In this document: positions 5,633 to 44,091 of the stretch, piece after piece | Numbering within the stretch: position 1 is the stretch's first letter | How the letters are laid out: each line of letters begins with the position of its first letter | NCBI GenBank assembly: GCA_963755765.1 | Contig: CAVWKZ010000008.1 | Coordinates: 615,695 to 679,694, forward strand | Length of the DNA: 64,000 nt | Direction: 5' to 3' | Origin: an uncultured Acidobacteriaceae bacterium | GTDB lineage: Bacteria; Acidobacteriota; Terriglobia; Terriglobales; Acidobacteriaceae | Program-made: the position numbers and the translations under genes | Notes under the pieces: model-generated | Told to the model about the DNA's origin: nothing | Databases searched by the model: none | The model's input: only the letters and a program-made list of their open reading frames with translations

Positions 5633-5934
5633 TGGGAAACACGTGCCAGTTGCCGGTTTTGACACCTTGCGTGCCCCGCTCTGTGTAGTGATTGGAGAAT
5701 GAGTCGAAAGTGCTAAGTAACGTGCTAAGGGCTTCTTGGTCGCGAACGAGAAGGGTGTGAGTTGACTCGTGCCGTAAGCTGTCGAAAATGGTCCGCGCTT
5801 TAGCGCCCGAGGTAAGCCTTCTGCACCGTTCTCCACAACTAGCTCCTCCTCTCCACAGGATGTACACAGAGAGCAACCGCTTTCGAGTTGCAGCCCAAGC
5901 CGTTCAAGGTGCACAGTCTAATTACACGAGATTT

Positions 5935-6705
5935 ATGAAGACAGCAGCTGAAGTTTGCCCCTGGTGCGCGGGTTCAGGATGGAAGCCGGTTCCCGAAGCG
6001 CCGGAGCGAGGCGTAACGCGTTGCGATTGTCAGTTGCGGGCGCGCGGCAGCGCCATGATCACGGCGGCGCGTATTCCCAAGCGATACGAGCATTGCGAGC
6101 TGTCGAACTTCACCACCGATTTTCCCGGCGCCGATCGTTCGGTGGAGCTGGCCCAGATCAGCGCCGCGCGCTTCGTGCAGGAGTTTGACCCGCGAGACGG
6201 AGCCGGCCTGCTGCTGGTCGGAGGAATCGGCACCGGCAAGACCCATCTCGCTGTGGGCATTCTCAAGGAACTTATCGCCACCCGAGGCAGCGCCTGCCTT
6301 TTTTGCGATTATCGCGAGCTGCTGAAACAGATTCAGAACTCATACAACGATTCCGTCCAGGCGACCGAATTACAAGTGTTGCGGCCAGTGTTTGAAGCCG
6401 AAGTGCTGTTGCTCGATGAACTCGGCGCCGTGAAACCAAGCGAGTGGGTATGGGACACAGTCAGCCTCATCCTCAACACCCGCTACAACGACAATCGAAC
6501 CACGATCATCACCACGAATTTTGCGGACGAGCCGGCTGCCAGCGTAACTCGATCGTTGTCGCCGGCTCGTGCCGCCGCGCGCGAAGAGACCCTTGGCGAC
6601 CGCATCGGAGAACGCATGCGCTCCCGTCTGCAAGAGATGTGCCGCATTGTGAGGATGGACGGCCCCGACTTCCGCCAGAAGTTCAAGAGCGCAAGCTTCG
6701 GATGA
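5935..6705 (+). CDS. DnaC/DnaI/IstB-like AAA+ ATPase with N-terminal Cys-rich zinc-finger-like motif
   Basis: Walker A GGIGTGKTHL and Walker B LLLDELG, followed by TTIITTN. The N-terminus is CPWCAGSGW...TRCDC. I trimmed the start to the ATG at 5935. Confidence 0.75.
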   Translation: MKTAAEVCPWCAGSGWKPVPEAPERGVTRCDCQLRARGSAMITAARIPKRYEHCELSNFTTDFPGADRSVELAQISAARFVQEFDPRDGAGLLLVGGIGTGKTHLAVGILKELIATRGSACLFCDYRELLKQIQNSYNDSVQATELQVLRPVFEAEVLLLDELGAVKPSEWVWDTVSLILNTRYNDNRTTIITTNFADEPAASVTRSLSPARAAAREETLGDRIGERMRSRLQEMCRIVRMDGPDFRQKFKSASFG

Positions 6706-12261: not shown

Positions 12262-13647
12262 ATGACGACAACTCTGGAAACTCATACTCCTAAAGTCGAA
12301 ACTGAATTGCGGGAACTCGCAACCGATGTCGTCCGCCGCGCCATGAAAGGCGGAGCGACCGCGGCCGAGTGCATCGTCCGCGAAGGCGACGAATTCTCCA
12401 CCGTGGTGCGCCTCGGCCAGGTCGAAACTCTGAAAGAGTCCGGTTCGCGCGCCATCGGAGTCCGCGTCTTCTTCGGACAGCGCGCTGCCAGCACCTACTC
12501 CAGCGACTTCTCCGCCGCTGGTATCGAGCGCATGTTGAAGTCCGCCCTCGAACTCGCGAAGATCTGCTCTGAGGATCCGTACTCGGGCATTCCCGAAGCC
12601 GCTAAGCTCGGATCGCTCTCCGGCAACCTCGATCTCTATCACGAGGATGTCTACTCGCTCCCCGGCTCCGAGCGCATCGAGTACGCGCGCCGCGCCGAGA
12701 AGGCCGCGCTCGACGCCGATCCGCGCATCAAGAACTCCGAAGGCGGATCGTTCGACGCCGCCACCGGCAGAAAAGTGCTGGCAAATTCTCATGGTTTTGT
12801 CGGCGAATACAGGCGATCCTACTGTTCCGTCGCCGCTGTGCCCATCGCGCAGGACGCGAACGGCCTGATGCAGCGCGATTACTGGTACTCAGTGGCCCGC
12901 AGCCTGGCGAAGCTCGACTCCGCGGAGCAAGTAGGCAAAGAAGCAGCGCGCCGTACCCTCCGACGCCTAGGCGCCCGGAAGGTGAAGACCGCCCACGTGC
13001 CGGTGGTGCTCGATCCCATGGTCGCCAGTTCGATGCTCGAACATATTTTCGAGGGCGTGAACGGCGACTCCGTCTATCGCGGAGCCTCGTTCCTGGCCGG
13101 CAAACTCGGCGAGAAAATTGCCGGACCGAACGTCACCGTCATTGATGACGGCACCATGCCCGGCGGTTTCGCCACCACGCCCTTCGACGGCGAAGGCATC
13201 CCCACGCGCCGCACGGTGGTAATTCAAGACGGACTTCTAAAGTCGTATCTGCTGAACACCTACACCGCGAAGAAGTTAGGATTAGAGACTACTGCCAACG
13301 CATCCCGCGGCCTTGCCGGAACACCCGGAATCGGCCCCGGGAATTACTTCCTCGAACCAGGGACGAAGGCGCCAAAGCAAATCATTGCAGACATCAAAGA
13401 CGGCTTGTATGTAACCGAGTTTCTAGGCCACGGCGCCAACCTGGTCACCGGCGATTATTCCCGCGGAGCCTCCGGCATGTGGATCGTCAACGGCGAACTG
13501 GCCTTTCCGGTCGAAGAGATCACCGTGGCCGGCAATCTCAAAGACATGTTTTGCAACATCTCCGAGATAGGAAGCGACTTGGAATTCCGCGGCAGCGTAG
13601 CCTCACCGACCATCCGCATCGACGGCCTCACTGTGGGTGGAGAGTAA
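12262..13647 (+). CDS. pmbA: Metalloprotease PmbA/TldE
   Basis: TldD/PmbA family paralogue immediately after tldD. I trimmed the start to the ATG at 12262, because the upstream residues (FCFSLCLCASVV) translate the hairpin repeat. Confidence 0.9.
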   Translation: MTTTLETHTPKVETELRELATDVVRRAMKGGATAAECIVREGDEFSTVVRLGQVETLKESGSRAIGVRVFFGQRAASTYSSDFSAAGIERMLKSALELAKICSEDPYSGIPEAAKLGSLSGNLDLYHEDVYSLPGSERIEYARRAEKAALDADPRIKNSEGGSFDAATGRKVLANSHGFVGEYRRSYCSVAAVPIAQDANGLMQRDYWYSVARSLAKLDSAEQVGKEAARRTLRRLGARKVKTAHVPVVLDPMVASSMLEHIFEGVNGDSVYRGASFLAGKLGEKIAGPNVTVIDDGTMPGGFATTPFDGEGIPTRRTVVIQDGLLKSYLLNTYTAKKLGLETTANASRGLAGTPGIGPGNYFLEPGTKAPKQIIADIKDGLYVTEFLGHGANLVTGDYSRGASGMWIVNGELAFPVEEITVAGNLKDMFCNISEIGSDLEFRGSVASPTIRIDGLTVGGE

Positions 13648-13696
13648 AGATTTCGGGGGACCGCCATCGGTTGCCCAGCCCGGCTACCACGATCTT

Positions 13697-14182
13697 TCAA
13701 GCAAGCTCCCGCAGCGCCCCCAGCAACTCTTCAAGGTTCGGCAGTTGGTCAATCGGATAAACCTTAGCAAAAACAATCCTCCCCGCTTTATCCACAATGA
13801 ACGCAGCCCGTTCACTGATGCCTGCGACCGGCGGCCCTTCCCGCAGGATGCCGAATTTCCGCGTCACCTCGGCATGTGGATAGAAATCGGAGCACAAAGG
13901 AACCTCGACCGGACCAAGTTCCTCCCGCCGCCACGCGATGTGGCTCGGAATCGAATCTACGCTGATGTCCATGACCTGGGCATTAAGCGCCGCGAACTCT
14001 TTTTTCCTGGCGTCGAGTTCCGGCACCTGCGCCGCTCAAGTCGGTGTCCAATCCAGCGGATGAAACGCCACGACCAGGTTCTGCCGGCCGAGATACTCGC
14101 GCGAGCGCATCATAATCTGGCGTTCGCCCGCAACCGCGGGAAGTTCGAACTCCGGCGCTCGGTCGCCAATTTTAAGGGCCAT
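13697..14182 (-). CDS. Bcp/PrxQ-type peroxiredoxin with in-frame UGA at the peroxidatic Cys position (candidate selenoprotein)
   Basis: The ATG at 14182 gives MALKIGDRAPEFELPAV...NLVVAFHPLDWTPT-[TGA]-AAQVPELDARKKEFAALNAQVMDISVDS..., which aligns with the Prx motif F.P.DFTP.C. The ORF track shows only the part after the TGA (13697-14026). Confidence 0.75.
13994..14035 (-). promoter_or_regulatory. Candidate bacterial SECIS hairpins downstream of the Prx UGA
   Basis: On the minus strand after the UGA there are two hairpins. One is cggcg-cagg-tgccg at +2 to +15. The other is gaactc-(15-nt loop containing GG)-gagttc at +16 to +42. Confidence 0.4.
14036..14038 (-). other. In-frame UGA (putative Sec codon) in the peroxiredoxin
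   Basis: The plus strand reads tca at 14036-14038. It is in frame with both the ATG at 14182 and the downstream ORF. Confidence 0.7.
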
Positions 14183-14295
14183 TGTCGTTTCCCATCCGAA
14201 CAAAATTGTAATTGAGATTGCAGGCGGCCGTTCTTAACCCCGGAATTAACCTGCTTTTAACATCCGCCCTGTCATGAGCCGTTAACATTTCTCAC

Positions 14296-14640
14296 ATGCC
14301 CGATCAGCCGTTGAACATCGAAGATCTACCCGGGTCGCGGGAGGGAGTCCACATCCTGCGCCTTTCTGGGCCGCTGACGCTTACCAACCTATTCGGTTTT
14401 CAGTCCAAGGTTCGGGCCGATAACGCGCGCGCCCTCATCCTAGATTTCACGAATGTTCCCTTAGCTGATTCGGCGGGGATTGGAGCGCTCGTCGGCGCCT
14501 ACGTCACGCGACAGAAAGATGGACGCAGCCTGGGCTTGGTCGGCGTCAATCAGCGCATCCACCAGGCTCTGGAAGTCACACGCGTGGAAGGCTTTTTCCA
14601 ATTCTACGAAACCGTTGCTGAAGCCGAGCAGGCAGCATGA
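14296..14640 (+). CDS. STAS domain protein (anti-sigma-factor antagonist-like)
   Basis: 114 aa with the SpoIIAA-like pattern ...LILDFTNVPLADSAGIGALVG.... Confidence 0.8.
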   Translation: MPDQPLNIEDLPGSREGVHILRLSGPLTLTNLFGFQSKVRADNARALILDFTNVPLADSAGIGALVGAYVTRQKDGRSLGLVGVNQRIHQALEVTRVEGFFQFYETVAEAEQAA

Positions 14641-15286: not shown

Positions 15287-15649
15287 ATGCTGGCCATCCG
15301 CGCTGAAAACCTTGGTGACCTGGCTGTGATCGAGTGTAGAGGTCGTATCTTGCGCAGCGATTCGGTTTTCAAGCTGCGCGATTTCGTGCAGGCGCAAGCA
15401 CCCGTCCGGATTATTGCGCTCGATCTTTCCGAAGTCGAAGCTATCGGCGGCGGCGGCTTGGGGATGCTCGCATTCCTCGAGCGCTGGGCGCGCGAACACG
15501 ATATTCGATTGAAACTGTTCGCGCCGTCCAAACCCGTATTGGAAGGCTTGGTGCGCAACCGCTCCATCCTGAACTTCGAAATTGCGACCTTCCATCAAAT
15601 GATGGATATGCTGGCCAACTCCGCCGGCCAATACGCCATTGCCGCCTGA
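15287..15649 (+). CDS. STAS domain protein
   Basis: 120 aa with ...IIALDLSEVEAIGGGGLGMLAFL..., a SpoIIAA-like fold pattern. Confidence 0.7.
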   Translation: MLAIRAENLGDLAVIECRGRILRSDSVFKLRDFVQAQAPVRIIALDLSEVEAIGGGGLGMLAFLERWAREHDIRLKLFAPSKPVLEGLVRNRSILNFEIATFHQMMDMLANSAGQYAIAA

Positions 15650-15692
15650 TCACTCAGTTGCAACTTCCCACGGGCTCATTCATCATCGAGGC

Positions 15693-16667
15693 ATGAGTAT
15701 TCAGTTGGGAAAGTGGGGCTTGGTCCTCGCAGGAATTCTCCTCTACATCTCCTTAAGCGTTCTCACTCCGGCCCCAACGCTCGCCCAATCCGACCTCATC
15801 GGCGATGTACGCGCTCAATTAGCGCAGAACTCCTTTCCCGCGGCCGAGTCCGAACTTCGTGCCTACAAGGCTCAGCATGGCATCACGCCGGAGTACCTCG
15901 AAGCCTTGTCGTGGATGGCCCGCGCAGCGGCCGCAGCCAAACAATGGGACCAAGCCACGACTTACGCGATCGAGACTCGTACTCTCTGCGAGCAGCAACT
16001 AACACCAACGACGAGCAAGCGCAAACTGGACGCCGAACCTCATCTTGCCATCGCTCTCGGCGCCGCCTACGAAGTTCTCGCCCAGGCGATGGAGGCAAAA
16101 GGTCAGCACGCAAAAGGCGTCAGCCTGCTGCGCTCGGCGCTGGCGCGTTACGGAAATACATCCATAAGACCGCGGCTCCAAAAGAACATCAACCTGCTGG
16201 CTCTAGTCGGTCAACCGGCACCGCCCTTGCAGGAAGCTCAGTATCTTGGACCGAAGCCACCCGCTCTCGCGTCGCTCAAAGGCTCGCCCGTTCTCCTGTT
16301 CTTCTGGGCGCATTGGTGTGGAGACTGCAAAGCCGAAGTCCCCATCATTGCCCGCCTGCGACAGGAATTCGCTCCCGAAGGTCTGGTAGTCATCGGTCCC
16401 ACCCAACTCTACGGCTATGCGGCACAAGGAGCCGATGCCTCACCCGAGCAGGAGCGATCATATATAGAATCGGTGCGCGCCCGCTATTACGCCAGCCTTC
16501 AGGACATGCCAGTACCGTTAAGCAAGCAGAACTTTAACGCTTACGGAGCGAGCACAACGCCGACTTTGGTCGTTCTGAATCGCGCCGGTCAGGTAGCGAT
16601 GTATCACCCCGGCGCGCTCTCCTATGACGAACTGAGAGCTGCGGTGCAGAAGGCTGTAGCTCGTTAA
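15693..16667 (+). CDS. TlpA-like thiol:disulfide oxidoreductase with N-terminal helical domain
   Basis: Signal/TM segment WGLVLAGILLYISL. The C-terminal thioredoxin fold carries FFWAHWCGDCK (CxxC). I trimmed the start to the ATG at 15693. Confidence 0.8.
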   Translation: MSIQLGKWGLVLAGILLYISLSVLTPAPTLAQSDLIGDVRAQLAQNSFPAAESELRAYKAQHGITPEYLEALSWMARAAAAAKQWDQATTYAIETRTLCEQQLTPTTSKRKLDAEPHLAIALGAAYEVLAQAMEAKGQHAKGVSLLRSALARYGNTSIRPRLQKNINLLALVGQPAPPLQEAQYLGPKPPALASLKGSPVLLFFWAHWCGDCKAEVPIIARLRQEFAPEGLVVIGPTQLYGYAAQGADASPEQERSYIESVRARYYASLQDMPVPLSKQNFNAYGASTTPTLVVLNRAGQVAMYHPGALSYDELRAAVQKAVAR

Positions 16668-19471: not shown

Positions 19472-20044
19472 ATGAAAACACCGCCGATTTGGTTTGAGCG
19501 AAAGTTTGACTTCACGTTTCCCGTGGACCAGTGTCCGAACCTGTGTGCGCGTTTGCGAGGCACCCCGGCCCGGCTGGAAGAAATCGTCAACGCCATTGAT
19601 CGCGGCGTCCTGATCAGCAAGCCGGGCGAAAATAAGAAATGGTCAGCCCAGGAACACGCCGGACACTTGCTGGACCTCGAACCTCTATGGATGGCGCGGG
19701 TAAATAATTATCTGGGAGATGACTACCTGAATGAGGCATCGCAGCTAACCGCGGCTGATCTGAGCAATCGGAAGACGCACGAAGCGCACCACAACCAGCG
19801 CCCGATCGGCGAGATTCTCGCGGAATTCCGAAGCGCCCGCTCACAACTCGTGAACCAAGTCGAGAACCTCGGCCCTGCAATCTACGCCCGTGCTCTTCTT
19901 CATCCGCGGCTGAAATTACCCATGCGGCTGGTCGACCATTTGTACTTTGTGGCCGAGCACGATGACCATCACCTGGCCCACATCTGGGACCTGACCAGTA
20001 CCGATCAGTCAGCAACGCGCAAATCAAGAATCAACCCGGATTAA
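19472..20044 (+). CDS. DinB family protein
   Basis: 190 aa with His-containing helices (EHAGHLLDLE, EHDDHHLAHIWDL) typical of DinB_2. Confidence 0.75.
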   Translation: MKTPPIWFERKFDFTFPVDQCPNLCARLRGTPARLEEIVNAIDRGVLISKPGENKKWSAQEHAGHLLDLEPLWMARVNNYLGDDYLNEASQLTAADLSNRKTHEAHHNQRPIGEILAEFRSARSQLVNQVENLGPAIYARALLHPRLKLPMRLVDHLYFVAEHDDHHLAHIWDLTSTDQSATRKSRINPD

Positions 20045-21094
20045 CGGTTTCGTGCGCGGCAAAACCTCGCCGATTTCCACCGCCGGAACGCCAGCATCCC
20101 GCAGCGCTCGCGTAAGCGCAGCGGCCTCCTCAGCGGAAACCGAGATCAACAGGCCTCCGGCGGTCTGCGGATCGAACAAAAGCGTGCGGATATCGTCGGG
20201 CACCGTCGCATCGTAGCCCACCACGCATTCCGCAAAATCGCGATTGGCATTGAGTCCGCCGGGAATGTGGCTGGCATGAATGCAATCGAGCGCGCCCTCA
20301 AGCACAGGAATCTCGGCGGACTGAAATACCAGGCTCACGTCCGATGCCAGCGCCATCTCGCGAGCGTGGCCGATCAGACCGAAGCCGGTGATGTCGGTGA
20401 GCGCATGCACAGACCTTCTAGGCGAGTGCTCCGCAAGCCCGCTGATAATCACCTCAGCCGCGGCTTTATTCAGGGTTGTCATCGACTTCACGGCGGCGTC
20501 AATCCACTCCTGCCTGGCAACACCTTTCTTGATCGCCGTCGAAATCACGCCCGTGCCCAGCGCCTTAGTGAACAGCAACCGGTCGCCGGGTCGGGCGCCC
20601 TGATTAGCCAGCACACGCTTAGGATGAATCACTCCGGTAACGGAATAGCCGAATTTTGTTTCTTCATCGCGAATGCTATGACCGCCAACCACCGTGCATC
20701 CAGCCTCCATCATCTTCGACAAGCCGCCCGCCAGAATGCGCTCTAGAATTTCGAGGTCGCCTTTTTCGGGAAAGCAAACCAACGCCAGCGAGGTCAGCGG
20801 CTTTCCACCCATGGCATAAACGTCGCTGAGCGCGTTGGTGGCGGCGATCTGGCCGAAAGTGTACGGATCGTCCACGATGGGCGTGAAAAAATCCACCGTC
20901 TGCACCAGCGCCGTCTCCGGCGTCAACAGATACACTCCGGCATCGTCGGCGCGATCGAAGCCGACTAGCACATTGGGGTCCTGTTGCCGGGCTAATTTCC
21001 CAAGCACTGTGTCCAGCGCCGCCGGACTCAGCTTGGACGCTCAACCCGCAGCTTTAACAGACTCCGTGAGACGGAATGGTTTTACCTCAGACAC
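20024..21094 (-). CDS. selD: Selenide, water dikinase (selenophosphate synthetase) with in-frame UGA at the catalytic Cys/Sec position
   Basis: The GTG at 21094 gives (M)SEVKPFRLTESVKAAG-[TGA]-ASKLSPAALDTVLGKLARQQDPNVLVGF...DDAGVY.... This aligns with E. coli SelD [25 protein letters not shown]. The ORF track starts only after the TGA (21007). Confidence 0.85.
21000..21036 (-). promoter_or_regulatory. Candidate SECIS hairpin 4 nt downstream of the selD UGA
   Basis: On the minus strand: ccaagc-tgagtcc-(ggcggcgct loop)-ggacaca-gt-gcttgg. The stem is about 13 bp, interrupted, with one A-A mismatch and a 2-nt bulge. Confidence 0.5.
21041..21043 (-). other. In-frame UGA (putative Sec codon) in selD
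   Basis: The plus strand reads tca at 21041-21043, in frame with the upstream FRLTESVKAAG and the downstream ASKLSPAAL. Confidence 0.8.
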
Positions 21095-26673: not shown

Positions 26674-26952
26674 TGCTGGTTTACATCTCCTTCACTCTGC
26701 TAGGAATTTCGGACAGCAAGGCAGGTCCGGGTTCTCCCGCGAGCCCGCTCACGGCCTGCCGGAGTGGAGGTCGCCGGGGCGTCCGCCGCACTTGGGGTCA
26801 ACATTTTATTCTACACAGGGAGACAGGGTTCTGGGAACTGGCGCATCGATGCGACCGCTAAATCCGGGCAATGCTTTCAATTGCCAATTACAAATCGCAA
26901 ATTACTAATTCTATGATTTGGGACTAAAATAGAGTCGATCGGGAGGTTCATT

Positions 26953-27243
26953 ATGCGCATTGGAAAATATCAGAGTTCTGACGGTACCAGCGGCACCGCC
27001 GTCACTTTCTTGTTGATCGGACTTGGCGTCGGCGCCGCCCTCGGTCTGTTGCTCGCTCCGAAGACGGGGCGCCAGCTGCGGAAAGATCTGCGGCGCTCCT
27101 ATGATGACGCCCTGGACACTGTGTCCGACTGGACCGACGAAGCTAAAGATCGTTTTGAGGAAGCCGTCGAAAAGGGCGCCGATTTCGCCGACGAACTCCG
27201 CGCCAAAGCTGAGCCGCTAAGCGACTTGTTGCGGCGCCCGTAA
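26953..27243 (+). CDS. YtxH domain protein
   Basis: 96 aa with a TM/Gly-zipper segment (FLLIGLGVGAALGLLLAPKTG) followed by a charged helix, as in YtxH-like stress proteins. Confidence 0.65.
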   Translation: MRIGKYQSSDGTSGTAVTFLLIGLGVGAALGLLLAPKTGRQLRKDLRRSYDDALDTVSDWTDEAKDRFEEAVEKGADFADELRAKAEPLSDLLRRP

Positions 27244-35285: not shown

Positions 35286-37529
35286 TTATTCTCCTCCGAT
35301 GCGAAACCTCAGGCCGGCGCGAAAGTTCGCTGTCCGGGCCGGATATCCCGCCACTTCGTTGTAGTGAGCGTTAAATACATTCCCGACATTTGCGTATGCG
35401 GTGACGCGCGAAGTGATCGCGTACCATCCGCCGATGTCGATGCGGGCGTAGCCGGCGGCATGGTCGACGAGATCGTCTTCAAAATCGGAATCTGGACGTC
35501 GCCCCACAAAGCTTCCGCTTAGGTTTGCGCTCCAGCGCGTTCCCAAGTAGTTGAGAAGCATGGTCCCGGAATGCTTGGGACGGCGGAGCAAGGGATCTCC
35601 GGGGGCGTAGGGGAAAAAGCAAGGGTTTGCCGGCGTACACAGTGGATTTTCTAGTATCTGAGTCGAAGTATAGGTATAGGCGGAGTTCAGCGACAACTTC
35701 TTCCATATCCTTCCATCCACCTCAAACTCTGCTCCTTGAGCGAAGGATTGCTGCACATTGAAGAACTGGCCGAGAGTGCCGGGCAGGTGGCCCATGTATT
35801 CCACAGTATTGGTTCCGTACTCAATTTGATCGTGGAAGAGGTTATTAAAGTAGGTTGCATTCAAGACCCAGCGGCCTGCCAGAAAGTTTTGCTGCAAACC
35901 GGCTTCGAAGGCGCGCGTCCGCACCGGTAGCAGACCCTTGTTCGGAACGTAGTAGGGCAGGCCGACAAACGTTTCGGTGAAATCGGGTTCCATGTAAGCG
36001 GTCGCATAGGAGAAACGCAGCCGTGTTCCAGAGAAGATTTCTCCACCTTTCAGCACTTGCAGCATCAGCGCAACCCGAGGCACGCCGGTGTTGCCAAATG
36101 CGCTGCTGTGGACGAAACGCCCGCCCGCAATTACGGACAGTTTGCCGAGTGTGAGCTGTTGTTGCAGATATGCATCCTGATTGAGCCGCTGGCCGCTCGT
36201 TGCCGGAGGAAACTCTGGATACTCGAACGAGGCGGTCTCATTCTCGATGCGATATCCGAAGGTCGAGTGCGCCGTAATTCGGTCAGAAGTGCGCTCCGAG
36301 TAATCTCCCTGGTATTCGAATGCCACGTGGTTGATGTCGTAGTCGTAAAGGGAAGCAAAGTTATAGGCATTTCCTTCCGGACTGTTGTCGGTGTAGTGGT
36401 AGAGGTAATCGGATCCGGTGAAACGGTGTTGCCAGCCGGAGGGAGCGGCGACGTCCAGTTCGACGCTTCCGAGCAGAGTGTTGGCGTGGGCATCCCCGAC
36501 GGTCAGCGGGGTGACGAAGGGATCGCCATTGAAACTCCACGCGCCGGGAAGCCCGGTATAACTGTTGGAGTGGCGCACGCGCGCACGCACGGACACGTCA
36601 TCGCTCAGAGCGACGCCGACGTTTCCTCCCATCAACGAATCCGAGTAGGAATTGTTTATGCCCTCGCCGTTGGTGTTGAACTGGTCGCCGAAAAAGTTGT
36701 AGTCCACGTGCTGGTAGGTGCCAGCGAGAGACGCGTAACCGTTGGCGGTTCCGAAATTTCCTCCATCGGCGCCAAAACGGAGCTCGGGCACCGGGGTGCT
36801 TCCGTTGCGGGTCCACACTTGCACCACGCTGGTCATGGCATCGGAGCCATACAAGGTGCTCTGCGCGCCGCGCACAAATTCGAGGCGATCGGCTTGGGCC
36901 AGGGGGAGCGTGCCGAAGTCAAAGGTCTCGCCGGGTTCGGTGATGGCAACCCCATCAACAATCACTTTGTTGTAGGTGGACTCGCCGCCGCGGACAAACA
37001 AAGACGAGAGTCCGCCGGGTTGTCCGTAACTATTCACGACGGCGCCCGGCAGGAAGCGCATGGCATCGGCCGCTTCAATGGGACGCATTACTTCTAATTG
37101 GCTGCCGCTGAGGGTTGCAACGTCGGCGCCCGCGGCCTGGGTTGGAACCGGAGTGCGGGTTGCGGTCACGACCACGGTTTCCGCTACCGTCGCCAGGTGG
37201 AGTTTGATGATGATGACTTCGGCAGTTGAGGAAGCGTCCACGGGCACTATTTCTGCGGCGAAGCCGGGAGTCAAGACCTGGATCCGATACTCCTGGATCC
37301 GATAATCCTTCGATGCCTGGGTCGCCTGCTCGCGGAAAATCGCCAAGCCTTCGGCGGACGTTCTTAACACGTCAACCGGAGCTGCCTTCCCCAATTTCAG
37401 TAATTGCACTTGCGCGCCGGCAACGGCGGCGTCTTGAGGATCGACAACTTTGACTTTAATTTCAGCTGATGCGATGGACGTTAGACAGATGGCCAACAGA
37501 AAAGCGAGACTATAAGATAACGAAACCAC
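35286..37529 (-). CDS. TonB-dependent receptor with N-terminal carboxypeptidase-regulatory-like domain (likely corrinoid uptake, given the riboswitch)
   Basis: Plug motifs (TVVVTATRTP..., LFVRGGESTYNKVIVDGV) followed by a long beta-barrel. The start is uncertain. The GTG at 37529 is in frame. A strong AAGGAG-N6-ATG at 37542 is out of frame by one nucleotide and stops after 10 codons. Confidence 0.9.
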   Translation of the reverse strand: MVSLSYSLAFLLAICLTSIASAEIKVKVVDPQDAAVAGAQVQLLKLGKAAPVDVLRTSAEGLAIFREQATQASKDYRIQEYRIQVLTPGFAAEIVPVDASSTAEVIIIKLHLATVAETVVVTATRTPVPTQAAGADVATLSGSQLEVMRPIEAADAMRFLPGAVVNSYGQPGGLSSLFVRGGESTYNKVIVDGVAITEPGETFDFGTLPLAQADRLEFVRGAQSTLYGSDAMTSVVQVWTRNGSTPVPELRFGADGGNFGTANGYASLAGTYQHVDYNFFGDQFNTNGEGINNSYSDSLMGGNVGVALSDDVSVRARVRHSNSYTGLPGAWSFNGDPFVTPLTVGDAHANTLLGSVELDVAAPSGWQHRFTGSDYLYHYTDNSPEGNAYNFASLYDYDINHVAFEYQGDYSERTSDRITAHSTFGYRIENETASFEYPEFPPATSGQRLNQDAYLQQQLTLGKLSVIAGGRFVHSSAFGNTGVPRVALMLQVLKGGEIFSGTRLRFSYATAYMEPDFTETFVGLPYYVPNKGLLPVRTRAFEAGLQQNFLAGRWVLNATYFNNLFHDQIEYGTNTVEYMGHLPGTLGQFFNVQQSFAQGAEFEVDGRIWKKLSLNSAYTYTSTQILENPLCTPANPCFFPYAPGDPLLRRPKHSGTMLLNYLGTRWSANLSGSFVGRRPDSDFEDDLVDHAAGYARIDIGGWYAITSRVTAYANVGNVFNAHYNEVAGYPARTANFRAGLRFRIGGE

Positions 37530-37574
37530 GGGAACAGGGCATGCACGTCTCCTTTATCACGCGAAAGGGGTTGT

Positions 37575-37775
37575 GGTGGACGGTTCACGCCGGTCTCCTG
37601 GCTTCGCGAGTAAGGATGTGAGCTTTCGCTCCAGCATCCGGTTGCTACAACCGGCCTTCCCAGGGTTGATCCTTTTCAGGTATCCCCAGTGACCGGTTGC
37701 GTTGTCCTCGCTTACAGTTGCGCGGCAGCGCGGGATTTGCACCCGCTTCCCATAGCGCCAGCTTTCGCCGGCCTA
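37575..37775 (-). promoter_or_regulatory. Cobalamin (B12) riboswitch
   Basis: The minus strand contains GGGAAGCGGGTGCAAATCCCGCGCTGCCGCGCAACTGTAAGCG (the conserved core). It also contains the B12 box AAGCCAGGAGACCGGCG (37588-37606 region), directly upstream of the TonB-dependent receptor. Confidence 0.85.
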
Positions 37776-37868
37776 CGATCATGCGCGAACCTAATTTTGA
37801 GAAAGAGCAAAAACAGCAGTCCGGTAAATCTACCGGGGCGTGTGCGGCAAAGTCAAACGCTCAACCGG

Positions 37869-43215: not shown

Positions 43216-43875
43216 TTGAACGAATCACCGAATCCAACGTCGAAGACCATCTATGTAACTCGGACCGGCCTCCCGCTCAGTTTTACGCTCGACTGGCCGT
43301 TCCGCCGAGCCACGTCCGGCGCGGACTTTGACGTCCTGCATACCACGATCACACTGGAGAATTCCGACGGCTTGCGCGCGCTCGTGGCCGTGAATCTTTC
43401 CGCCACTCTCCGGGAAGTGCTGCCTTCGCTCGAACCGAAAGACATGGAAAGTCCCGTCATCAATGCTCTGCGCAAGGAGGTCGACAACAAGCAGACCGAG
43501 TTCGTGAAATCCGGCAAACTGGTGCCGCTTCCATTGTCCAGCCGCCACTACAGTTTCAAACTCAAGCAATGGGTCTTCGGCAAGGCGACCGACGAAGAAA
43601 TCGCACGCATGATTGAGCGGAAGGTTTATTGGCAGACTCGCCTGGTCGGCGGAGATGTGTGGCTCGCCGACCCGACCGAGGCTCTCTATGTCGATACCAC
43701 CTCCGATCATATCGCTGAGATCGCTGCTCGACTTGTGCAGCAGGGTCAGTTCACCGTGGCCCAGCGCTATGCAACCGCGCTCCCGGCCCTGATCGATTAC
43801 GTGGGCCGTTTCGAATCCGAAATGGCCGCAGCCCGTCAGCAACTGGAGGAAAAGCACGCTTTTGAGCGCGGATAA
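43216..43875 (+). CDS. Hypothetical protein (start uncertain)
   Basis: Only the 3' third of the 475-aa ORF 42448-43875 is free of overlap with the preceding gene. TTG at 43216 is the first canonical start after 43141. No family recognised. Confidence 0.4.
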   Translation: MNESPNPTSKTIYVTRTGLPLSFTLDWPFRRATSGADFDVLHTTITLENSDGLRALVAVNLSATLREVLPSLEPKDMESPVINALRKEVDNKQTEFVKSGKLVPLPLSSRHYSFKLKQWVFGKATDEEIARMIERKVYWQTRLVGGDVWLADPTEALYVDTTSDHIAEIAARLVQQGQFTVAQRYATALPALIDYVGRFESEMAAARQQLEEKHAFERG

Positions 43876-44091
43876 TCAGAACTCCCAGCCGAAAAGGTAC
43901 TCCCCGTTCCCCACGCGCGGCAGGCGATTCTTTCGAACCATGGACGGTCCTGGCATGCAGTGAAAGTGTTTCCGACAATCACATCGGGGATAAATGTCAT
44001 TTGCATGACACCGTACCTTAGTGCACCAGCAGTCGTACATCCCGAGTTAGTACCCCCTCTCTAGTTATCATGCTCTATTTAGCAACAATTC

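Follow-up and report, generated by a model that had tools for sequence, protein, structure and literature searches.

A peroxiredoxin gene with an in-frame TGA

The stretch of DNA analyzed here, referred to below as the window, comprises 64,000 nucleotides of contig CAVWKZ010000008.1 (assembly GCA_963755765.1, forward-strand positions 615,695 to 679,694) from an uncultured Acidobacteriaceae bacterium. On its minus strand, at 13697..14182, lies a peroxiredoxin gene of 161 codons followed by a TGA stop codon. The gene starts with ATG at 14182-14180, and its codon 49, at 14036..14038 on the same strand, is an in-frame TGA at the peroxidatic position of the motif P42-x-x-x-T46-x-x-U49, which we read as selenocysteine (Sec). 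The initial annotation of this locus had proposed UGA-to-Sec recoding at the peroxidatic position, and every test that we ran supported this core claim. We estimate at roughly 93% the probability that 14182-13697 is a genuine, intact Sec-peroxiredoxin gene in which UGA codon 49 is decoded as selenocysteine.

Translation of the minus strand from 14182 to 13697 gave a frame with a single internal stop, the TGA at 14038..14036, and reproduced without any difference the peptide previously read from the ATG at 14182. The terminal stop codon, at 13699..13697, is also TGA, and one UGA in this mRNA would be read as Sec and the other as stop. With Cys in place of the internal stop, the product matched the Pfam domain AhpC-TSA (PF00578) with an E value of 1.5e-27 and 96.4 bits (cut-off, 26) at residues 5-138, and the match covers profile positions 1-123 of 124. 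The domain therefore extends across the TGA, with residues on either side. A scan for promoters and terminators around the peroxiredoxin gene found none.

In public data, this gene exists as two pieces. The list of open reading frames (ORFs) of the window holds the 109-amino acid C-terminal fragment alone, GTG-started and located at 13697-14026, as pointed out previously. The exact 48-amino acid N-terminal fragment and the exact 109-amino acid C-terminal fragment are present as separate proteins in a public collection, where each clusters with other fragments of like kind; the C-terminal fragments are named "alkyl hydroperoxide reductase subunit AhpC" by JGI. On a 1.3-kb Logan contig, both gene calls (48 and 109 amino acids) stand side by side. 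The description of this gene as hidden by ORF calling is thus literally correct, since the public calls give a 48-amino acid product and a 109-amino acid product.

A protein search with the window protein returned 1,182 homologues at an E value of ≤1e-5, of which we examined the best 120. Each of these 120 homologues covers at least 96% of the query, and they are mostly 160 to 170 amino acids long, with full-length ones of 161 to 165 amino acids. In the column of the TGA, 115 of these 120 proteins have Cys and 4 have "W." Similarly, in an alignment of 26 homologues (A1), 23 sequences have Cys and 3 have "W" at this position, in agreement with the proposal that the UGA sits exactly on the peroxidatic Cys. 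Overall, homologues with Cys at this position number more than 1,000. In alignment A1, P42, T46, and R125 are invariant, and codon 49, at the C of the PxxxTxxC motif universal to peroxiredoxins, is either UGA or Cys. Arg125 (codon at 13808..13810, minus strand) is the conserved peroxiredoxin active-site Arg and pairs with the Arg of IANRGTF in AhpE. To trace the origin of the "W," we read the DNA of seven contigs from two clusters with "W" at this position (P0010 and P0058), the proteins of which are 62-65% identical to the window protein at the amino acid level. All seven contigs have TGA, and the remaining frame is intact; "W" at codon 49 in database proteins is a translation artifact. There are also close Cys forms, with identities of 83-86%. 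A second Cys, Cys97 in PLCSDFYPH (codon at 13892..13894, minus strand), is a candidate resolving Cys based on its conservation: it is Cys in 86 of 87 Sec forms and in all 90 Cys forms bearing the motif (176 of 177 overall).

The window protein is a short Prx1/AhpE-like peroxiredoxin and lies outside the PrxU and Bcp/PrxQ subfamilies. It reached none of the NCBIfam equivalog cut-offs. The best Prx1/Prx6-type model gave 74 bits (cut-off, 211), the PrxU model NF040737 gave 62.5 bits (cut-off, 270), the Bcp model PRK09437 gave 41.8 bits (cut-off, 140), and the PrxQ model NF053650 gave 26.4 bits. The initial annotation had placed the protein in the Bcp/PrxQ family. This placement did not hold, because the Bcp score is far below its cut-off and also below the Prx1/Prx6-type score, and the fold matches the Prx1/AhpC type. 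Bcp/PrxQ was ruled out also by the missing CxxxxC resolving Cys, residue 54 being Pro. An AlphaFold2 model built from the alignment had a mean predicted local distance difference test (pLDDT) score of 94.2 and a predicted template modeling (pTM) score of 0.90. The best 50 PDB matches of this model in Foldseek were all peroxiredoxins, almost all of them typical 2-Cys (Prx1/AhpC-type) enzymes, with template modeling (TM) scores of 0.81 to 0.91. At the sequence level, the top PDB matches were a plant 2-Cys peroxiredoxin (E = 7.6e-20) followed by AhpE of Mycobacterium tuberculosis (E = 4.5e-19).

Among known systems, the typical 2-Cys peroxiredoxins (Arabidopsis 2-Cys PrxA/BAS1, 5ZTE, and human PRDX1-4) are the best fold matches (TM scores of 0.89 to 0.91; root mean square deviation of 1.2 to 2.0 Å), but these proteins have ~190-200 amino acids, and their resolving Cys lies in an arm at the C-terminus that the window protein lacks. 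The 1-Cys peroxiredoxin AhpE (Rv2238c; PDB 1XXU, 1XVW, 4X0X, and 5C04) is of similar size (153 amino acids), also has no C-terminal arm, and shares the block FHPL..T..C as well as the motifs SDFWPHG and NRG.F, its catalytic Cys pairing with residue 49. It differs in having Cys rather than Sec and in having Leu where the window family conserves Cys97, and the alignment is moderate (72 bits). Its rank as second-best PDB match and its similar length fit an assignment to the AhpE subfamily, but the conservation of Cys97 in 176 of 177 sequences and the marginally better score of the plant 2-Cys peroxiredoxin do not.

Sec-containing peroxiredoxins with a PxxxTxxU motif (PF00578, TxxU) are an accepted selenoprotein family (PMC13188914), for which PrxU of Eubacterium acidaminophilum is given as the prototype (Sohling et al. 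2001, as cited in PMC13188914). In an earlier survey, Cys homologues were abundant and Sec/Cys switches frequent, with 12 Sec-peroxiredoxins and five Cys-to-Sec events (PMC1794560, Table 1). The window protein resembles PrxU in its AhpC/TSA fold, in having Sec for the peroxidatic Cys in PxxxTxxU, and in a coding-region Sec insertion sequence (SECIS) directly after the UGA. It is not an orthologue of PrxU (62.5 versus 270 bits) and has 161 amino acids compared to a profile of 233 positions; moreover, it has no C-terminal extension of the kind found in typical 2-Cys enzymes and has the conserved Cys97 instead. The hosts also differ, those of PrxU-type proteins being clostridia or deltaproteobacteria and those of the window family Terriglobia soil bacteria.

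An RNA hairpin that includes the UGA

The UGA is part of a SECIS-like hairpin of ~70 nucleotides at 13973..14042 (minus strand), which we identified based on folding, pairing in orthologues, and Sec-specific stability. In the basal helix, GACUUG at 14042-14037, which holds the U and G of the UGA, pairs with CAGGUC at 13978-13973. The middle helix is formed by GGUGCCG and CGGCGCU, and the upper helix by GAACUC at 14020-14015 and GAGUUC at 13999-13994. The apical loop of 15 nucleotides, GACGCCAGGAAAAAA, extends from 14014 to 14000. The window hairpin has a minimum free energy (MFE) of −27.1 kcal/mol (z = −2.29). The initial annotation had described two hairpins within 42 nucleotides of the UGA. 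These do appear if 48 nucleotides alone are folded, but they are no better than those in shuffled sequences (z = −0.43), and what is supported is the single hairpin of ~70 nucleotides.

We compared 92 Sec forms to a control set of 94 distinct Cys-form genes from metagenomes with the same upstream motif. Over the 66 nucleotides from codon 49, the mean MFE was −25.5 kcal/mol in the 92 Sec forms versus −20.4 kcal/mol in the 94 Cys forms (Mann-Whitney, P = 1e-16). When 66-nucleotide folding windows were moved along the gene, the one starting at codon 49 was the most stable in Sec forms, and the Sec-minus-Cys stability gap at this codon (−5.1 kcal/mol) was the largest along the gene. Averaged base-pair probabilities recovered a basal helix in which AC-N-UG (the last bases of codon 48, followed by the first two of the UGA) pairs with CAGGU at +61..+65, a middle helix in which +12..+18 pairs with +48..+53, and an upper helix. 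The upper stem differs between two classes of orthologues. In class A, to which the window-like sequences belong, it is GAACUC/GAGUUC (+19..+24 with +40..+45); in class B, +18..+21 pairs with +45..+48 and there is an additional 4-bp apical helix. Across 33 class A sequences, the window structure was paired in 86.7% of cells versus 24-47% when the partners were slid by 1 to 3 columns, and one pair showed a compensatory CG-to-UA change in 6 sequences.

Synonymous sites told the same two sets apart: at codons 48, 53-56, 63, and 67-69, they are nearly frozen in Sec forms, whereas codon choice in Cys forms is varied. Thr48 is ACT in 68 of 92 Sec forms, compared to ACC in 34, ACG in 30, and ACT in 25 of the Cys forms. 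At codon 67, Sec forms have Asn, encoded by AAT in 54 of 54 cases, and Cys forms have mostly Asp (GAC, 27; GAT, 11). Ala68 is GCC in 89/90 Sec forms versus 38/48 Cys forms, and Gln69 is CAG in 90/90 versus 63/71. We conclude that the Sec forms have a conserved hairpin 3′ of the UGA that is specific to them.

Conservation, selenium context, and competing explanations

To assess the conservation of the TGA, we scanned one genome per species (GTDB representatives) with a DNA pattern for FHPxDWTPT followed by TGA. Ninety species-representative genomes have TGA at the same codon, nearly all of them labelled Terriglobia, Terriglobales, or Acidobacteriaceae, and TGA at codon 49 was also found in metagenome contigs. 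The upstream frame is open in 90 of the 90 TGA loci and starts with M(A/P)LK 48 codons before the TGA. Downstream of the TGA, a stop follows after 111-120 codons in all loci that reach that far, with L054 (see below) as the sole exception. The initial annotation had considered that close orthologues might be truncated at this point and the upstream 48 codons not conserved; the opposite was observed, as the N-termini are intact in all 90 loci.

The nearest relative, L054 (CAWGYS010000013.1, bin MFD01716.bin.2.24), has 93% DNA identity to the window and is syntenic with it, which places the window in an Acidobacteriaceae-like genome that is not among the species representatives scanned. In L054, the frame past the TGA stays open for only 90 codons rather than 112, likely as a result of a frameshift or a long-read assembly error. 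Two TGA-form orthologues come from bins labelled Candidatus Elarobacter (L042) and Acidimicrobiales (L068). L068 has a divergent 3′ arm, in which GGCGCUGUGG replaces AAUGCCCAGG, and the weakest fold (−19.6 kcal/mol). These TGA forms outside the Acidobacteriota labels could reflect horizontal transfer or mis-binning.

The window also contains selD for selenophosphate synthetase, itself a selenoprotein (20024..21094, minus strand; 366 bits against TIGR00476 with Cys substituted at the TGA; cut-off, 125). Its UGA, at 21043-21041 on the minus strand, is residue 18 counted from the GTG at 21094 and lies within VKAAG*ASKLSP. In AAG-U-ASKL, this TGA occupies the position that corresponds to the catalytic Cys of Escherichia coli SelD, located there in a GCGCK loop. 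A hairpin that includes the selD UGA (20988..21048, minus strand; MFE, −34.8 kcal/mol; z = −2.66) shares the design of the peroxiredoxin element, with the UGA base-paired in its basal helix; its apical loop is GGC. A selD gene that appeared to have a Sec codon of its own had been noted ~6 kb from the peroxiredoxin gene, and this was borne out at a distance of ~6-7 kb with the in-frame TGA at 21043..21041. A SelD that is itself a selenoprotein can function only where UGA is decoded as Sec. selA, selB, and selC are presumably present in the genome. In a six-frame scan of the window for TGA-split ORFs with coding-like GC content by codon position, only the peroxiredoxin gene and selD were found. 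Further TGA-split candidates at 26764-27243, 15287-15649, and 43225-44040 were translated and were not convincing. Published work supports the use of Sec in the phylum: a survey lists Acidobacteria with 3 selenoprotein families and 4 selenoproteins (PMC1794560, Table 2), and the Acidobacteriota isolate Occallatibacter riparius has three selenoproteins, i.e., AhpD-like, deiodinase-like, and FdhA (PMC12013277, Table 2 and Data S1).

Several observations weigh against decoding of codon 49 as Sec. Using ARAGORN, we found no tRNA gene in the 64-kb window and no tRNA-Sec in 60 orthologous loci. Searches with E. coli SelA and SelB using tblastn against the window and 218 loci gave no matches, and Pfam scans found no SelA or SelB domains in 20 ORFs of the window. 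The hairpin had no matching Rfam family, either at gathering thresholds or at an E value of ≤10 over 13600-14300. The orthologues use two upper-stem registers with no single consensus, on account of which RNAalifold returned no structure for all Sec forms together. Covariation is thin, since most paired positions do not vary; both sides change in only 2 of 24 pairs. The bSECISearch consensus for bacterial SECIS elements is reportedly that of Zhang and Gladyshev from 2005. Approximate bSECIS criteria, on which we do not rely, discriminated poorly: in a relaxed version, they were passed by only 45 of 92 Sec forms versus 21 of 94 Cys forms, and in a first version by 13/92 versus 13/94. Finally, the 15-nucleotide apical loop in the window is at or beyond the usual loop size. 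Like bacterial SECIS elements of the fdhF type, the window hairpin lies in coding sequence and begins at the UGA, and its apical loop starts 21 nucleotides after the UGA with G as the first base; it differs from them in its length (~70 nucleotides), in its unusually large apical loop, and in the two upper-stem registers of the orthologues.

We considered four explanations other than Sec decoding. A nonsense mutation in an ordinary Cys-peroxiredoxin gene would leave a pseudogene with two decaying pieces. Such a history would account for the two ORFs seen by gene callers, a single change from TGC or TGT to TGA would suffice for it, and close Cys forms exist at 83-86% identity. It does not account for the same TGA with intact flanks in 90 species, down to ~60% amino acid identity, for the lack of further stops or frameshifts, for the RNA structure and frozen synonymous sites specific to TGA forms, or for the presence of a Sec-dependent selD. 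We consider this explanation highly improbable and effectively refuted already by the conservation data. The chance that the TGA is a sequencing or assembly error and the true codon is TGC or TGT is negligible. The source appears to be a metagenome-type assembly, and in the 93%-identical L054 the gene is probably frameshifted downstream of the TGA; nevertheless, identical 109- and 48-amino acid fragments were recovered independently from a 1.17-Mb NCBI/ENA contig and from a Logan assembly (run ERR11523669), and the TGA recurs in 90 independent genomes.

Genome-wide reassignment of TGA to Trp or Gly (genetic code 4 or 25), in which case residue 49 would not be Sec, could explain why some pipelines gave the orthologues "W" at codon 49. 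This possibility is equally close to nil: Pfam- or NCBIfam-supported genes of the window terminate at TGA, namely selD, the peroxiredoxin gene, the IstB-like gene, and one of the PMT family, from which it follows that TGA is not reassigned genome-wide. Moreover, there are only two in-frame TGAs within recognizable genes in 64 kb, both on catalytic Cys positions, and a Trp at the peroxidatic site would be inactive. It is also conceivable that the UGA acts chiefly as a stop codon or undergoes suppression with Cys or Trp, with Sec insertion minor or conditional and the product largely truncated or a Cys/Trp variant. Sec insertion competes with termination in bacterial Sec decoding, and the presence of selA, selB, and selC in this genome is presumed. 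Against this, 90 species have jointly retained, under purifying selection, the 48 N-terminal codons, the TGA, the hairpin, and the C-terminal domain. This joint retention of both halves, the TGA, and the hairpin makes sense only if full-length protein is made, and we regard predominant termination or suppression as very unlikely.

Proposed mechanism, evolution, and gene neighborhood

We infer actual selenium incorporation at codon 49 and envision the following mechanism for the Sec-peroxiredoxin. The mRNA would fold into the ~70-nucleotide hairpin, from three bases before the UGA to 66 nucleotides after it. SelB with Sec-tRNA(Sec) would bind the upper part of the hairpin and bring Sec to the ribosome at the UGA. 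The selenophosphate donor would be supplied by the SelD encoded ~6-7 kb away, which would need the same recoding for its own synthesis. In the protein, the U49 selenolate would attack the O-O bond of the peroxide with activation by T46 and R125 of the PxxxTxxU pocket, giving a selenenic acid. This selenenic acid would most likely be resolved by Cys97 to form a selenenylsulfide, which a thioredoxin-type reductant would then reduce. Based on sequence conservation, we therefore propose that U49 and C97 may operate in an atypical 2-Cys-like cycle. None of the components constitutes a new mechanism, as Sec-peroxiredoxins, SECIS elements within coding regions, and SelD proteins with Sec are well known.

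In a quick neighbor-joining tree of Sec and Cys forms, from which residues 49-70 were excluded, the two forms were interleaved, and parsimony needs at least six switches between them. The closest Cys form, L143 (metagenome contig Ga0210383_10216205), has TGT at codon 49 and 79% nucleotide identity. It folds into nearly the same hairpin (−31.7 versus −32.7 kcal/mol) and has lost the frozen AAUGCCCAGG block, which fits a recent Sec-to-Cys switch with a relic SECIS. More tentatively, and at less than even odds, the window gene may belong to a large and apparently undescribed clade of short (~161 amino acids) Prx1/AhpE-like selenoperoxiredoxins. This clade would be specific to Terriglobia, with at least 90 soil species, and would be characterized by a U49/C97 selenenylsulfide cycle, at least six Sec/Cys flips, and an unusually long SECIS that embeds the UGA; its members would be systematically split in public catalogues into products of 48 and 109 amino acids.

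If such a clade exists, these soil bacteria have a selenium-dependent peroxide defense that has escaped notice. Terriglobia are generally considered to be largely aerobic. Sec forms favored anaerobes in a survey (PMC1794560), and the clade may run counter to this trend. Because public catalogues hold the halves as separate proteins, family statistics, pangenomes, and metabolic models of Terriglobia miss an intact antioxidant enzyme as well as a marker of selenium dependence. With this gene, the hosts of selenoperoxiredoxins come to include a widespread soil lineage, and the natural series of related Sec and Cys forms is useful for studying the gain and loss of Sec and the chemistry of Sec versus Cys peroxidases.

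On the plus strand next to the peroxiredoxin gene, we identified an ORF for a STAS-domain protein (14296-14640; Pfam PF01740), a second ORF that is STAS-like by eye (15287-15649), and an ORF for a 342-amino acid membrane protein with a C-terminal thioredoxin-like/AhpC-TSA domain (15639-16667). The STAS ORFs and the thioredoxin-like protein may form a small redox or stress-response neighborhood with the peroxiredoxin gene. An ORF at 5788-6705 (plus strand), ~7 kb from the peroxiredoxin gene, encodes an IstB-like ATP-binding domain (IS21 helper family), which suggests a mobile-element remnant. The only real Rfam match in the window is a full-length cobalamin riboswitch at 37571-37799 on the minus strand (RF00174; 73 bits; E = 4e-16), which lies directly upstream of an uncharacterized 747-amino acid ORF at 35286-37529 on the same strand.

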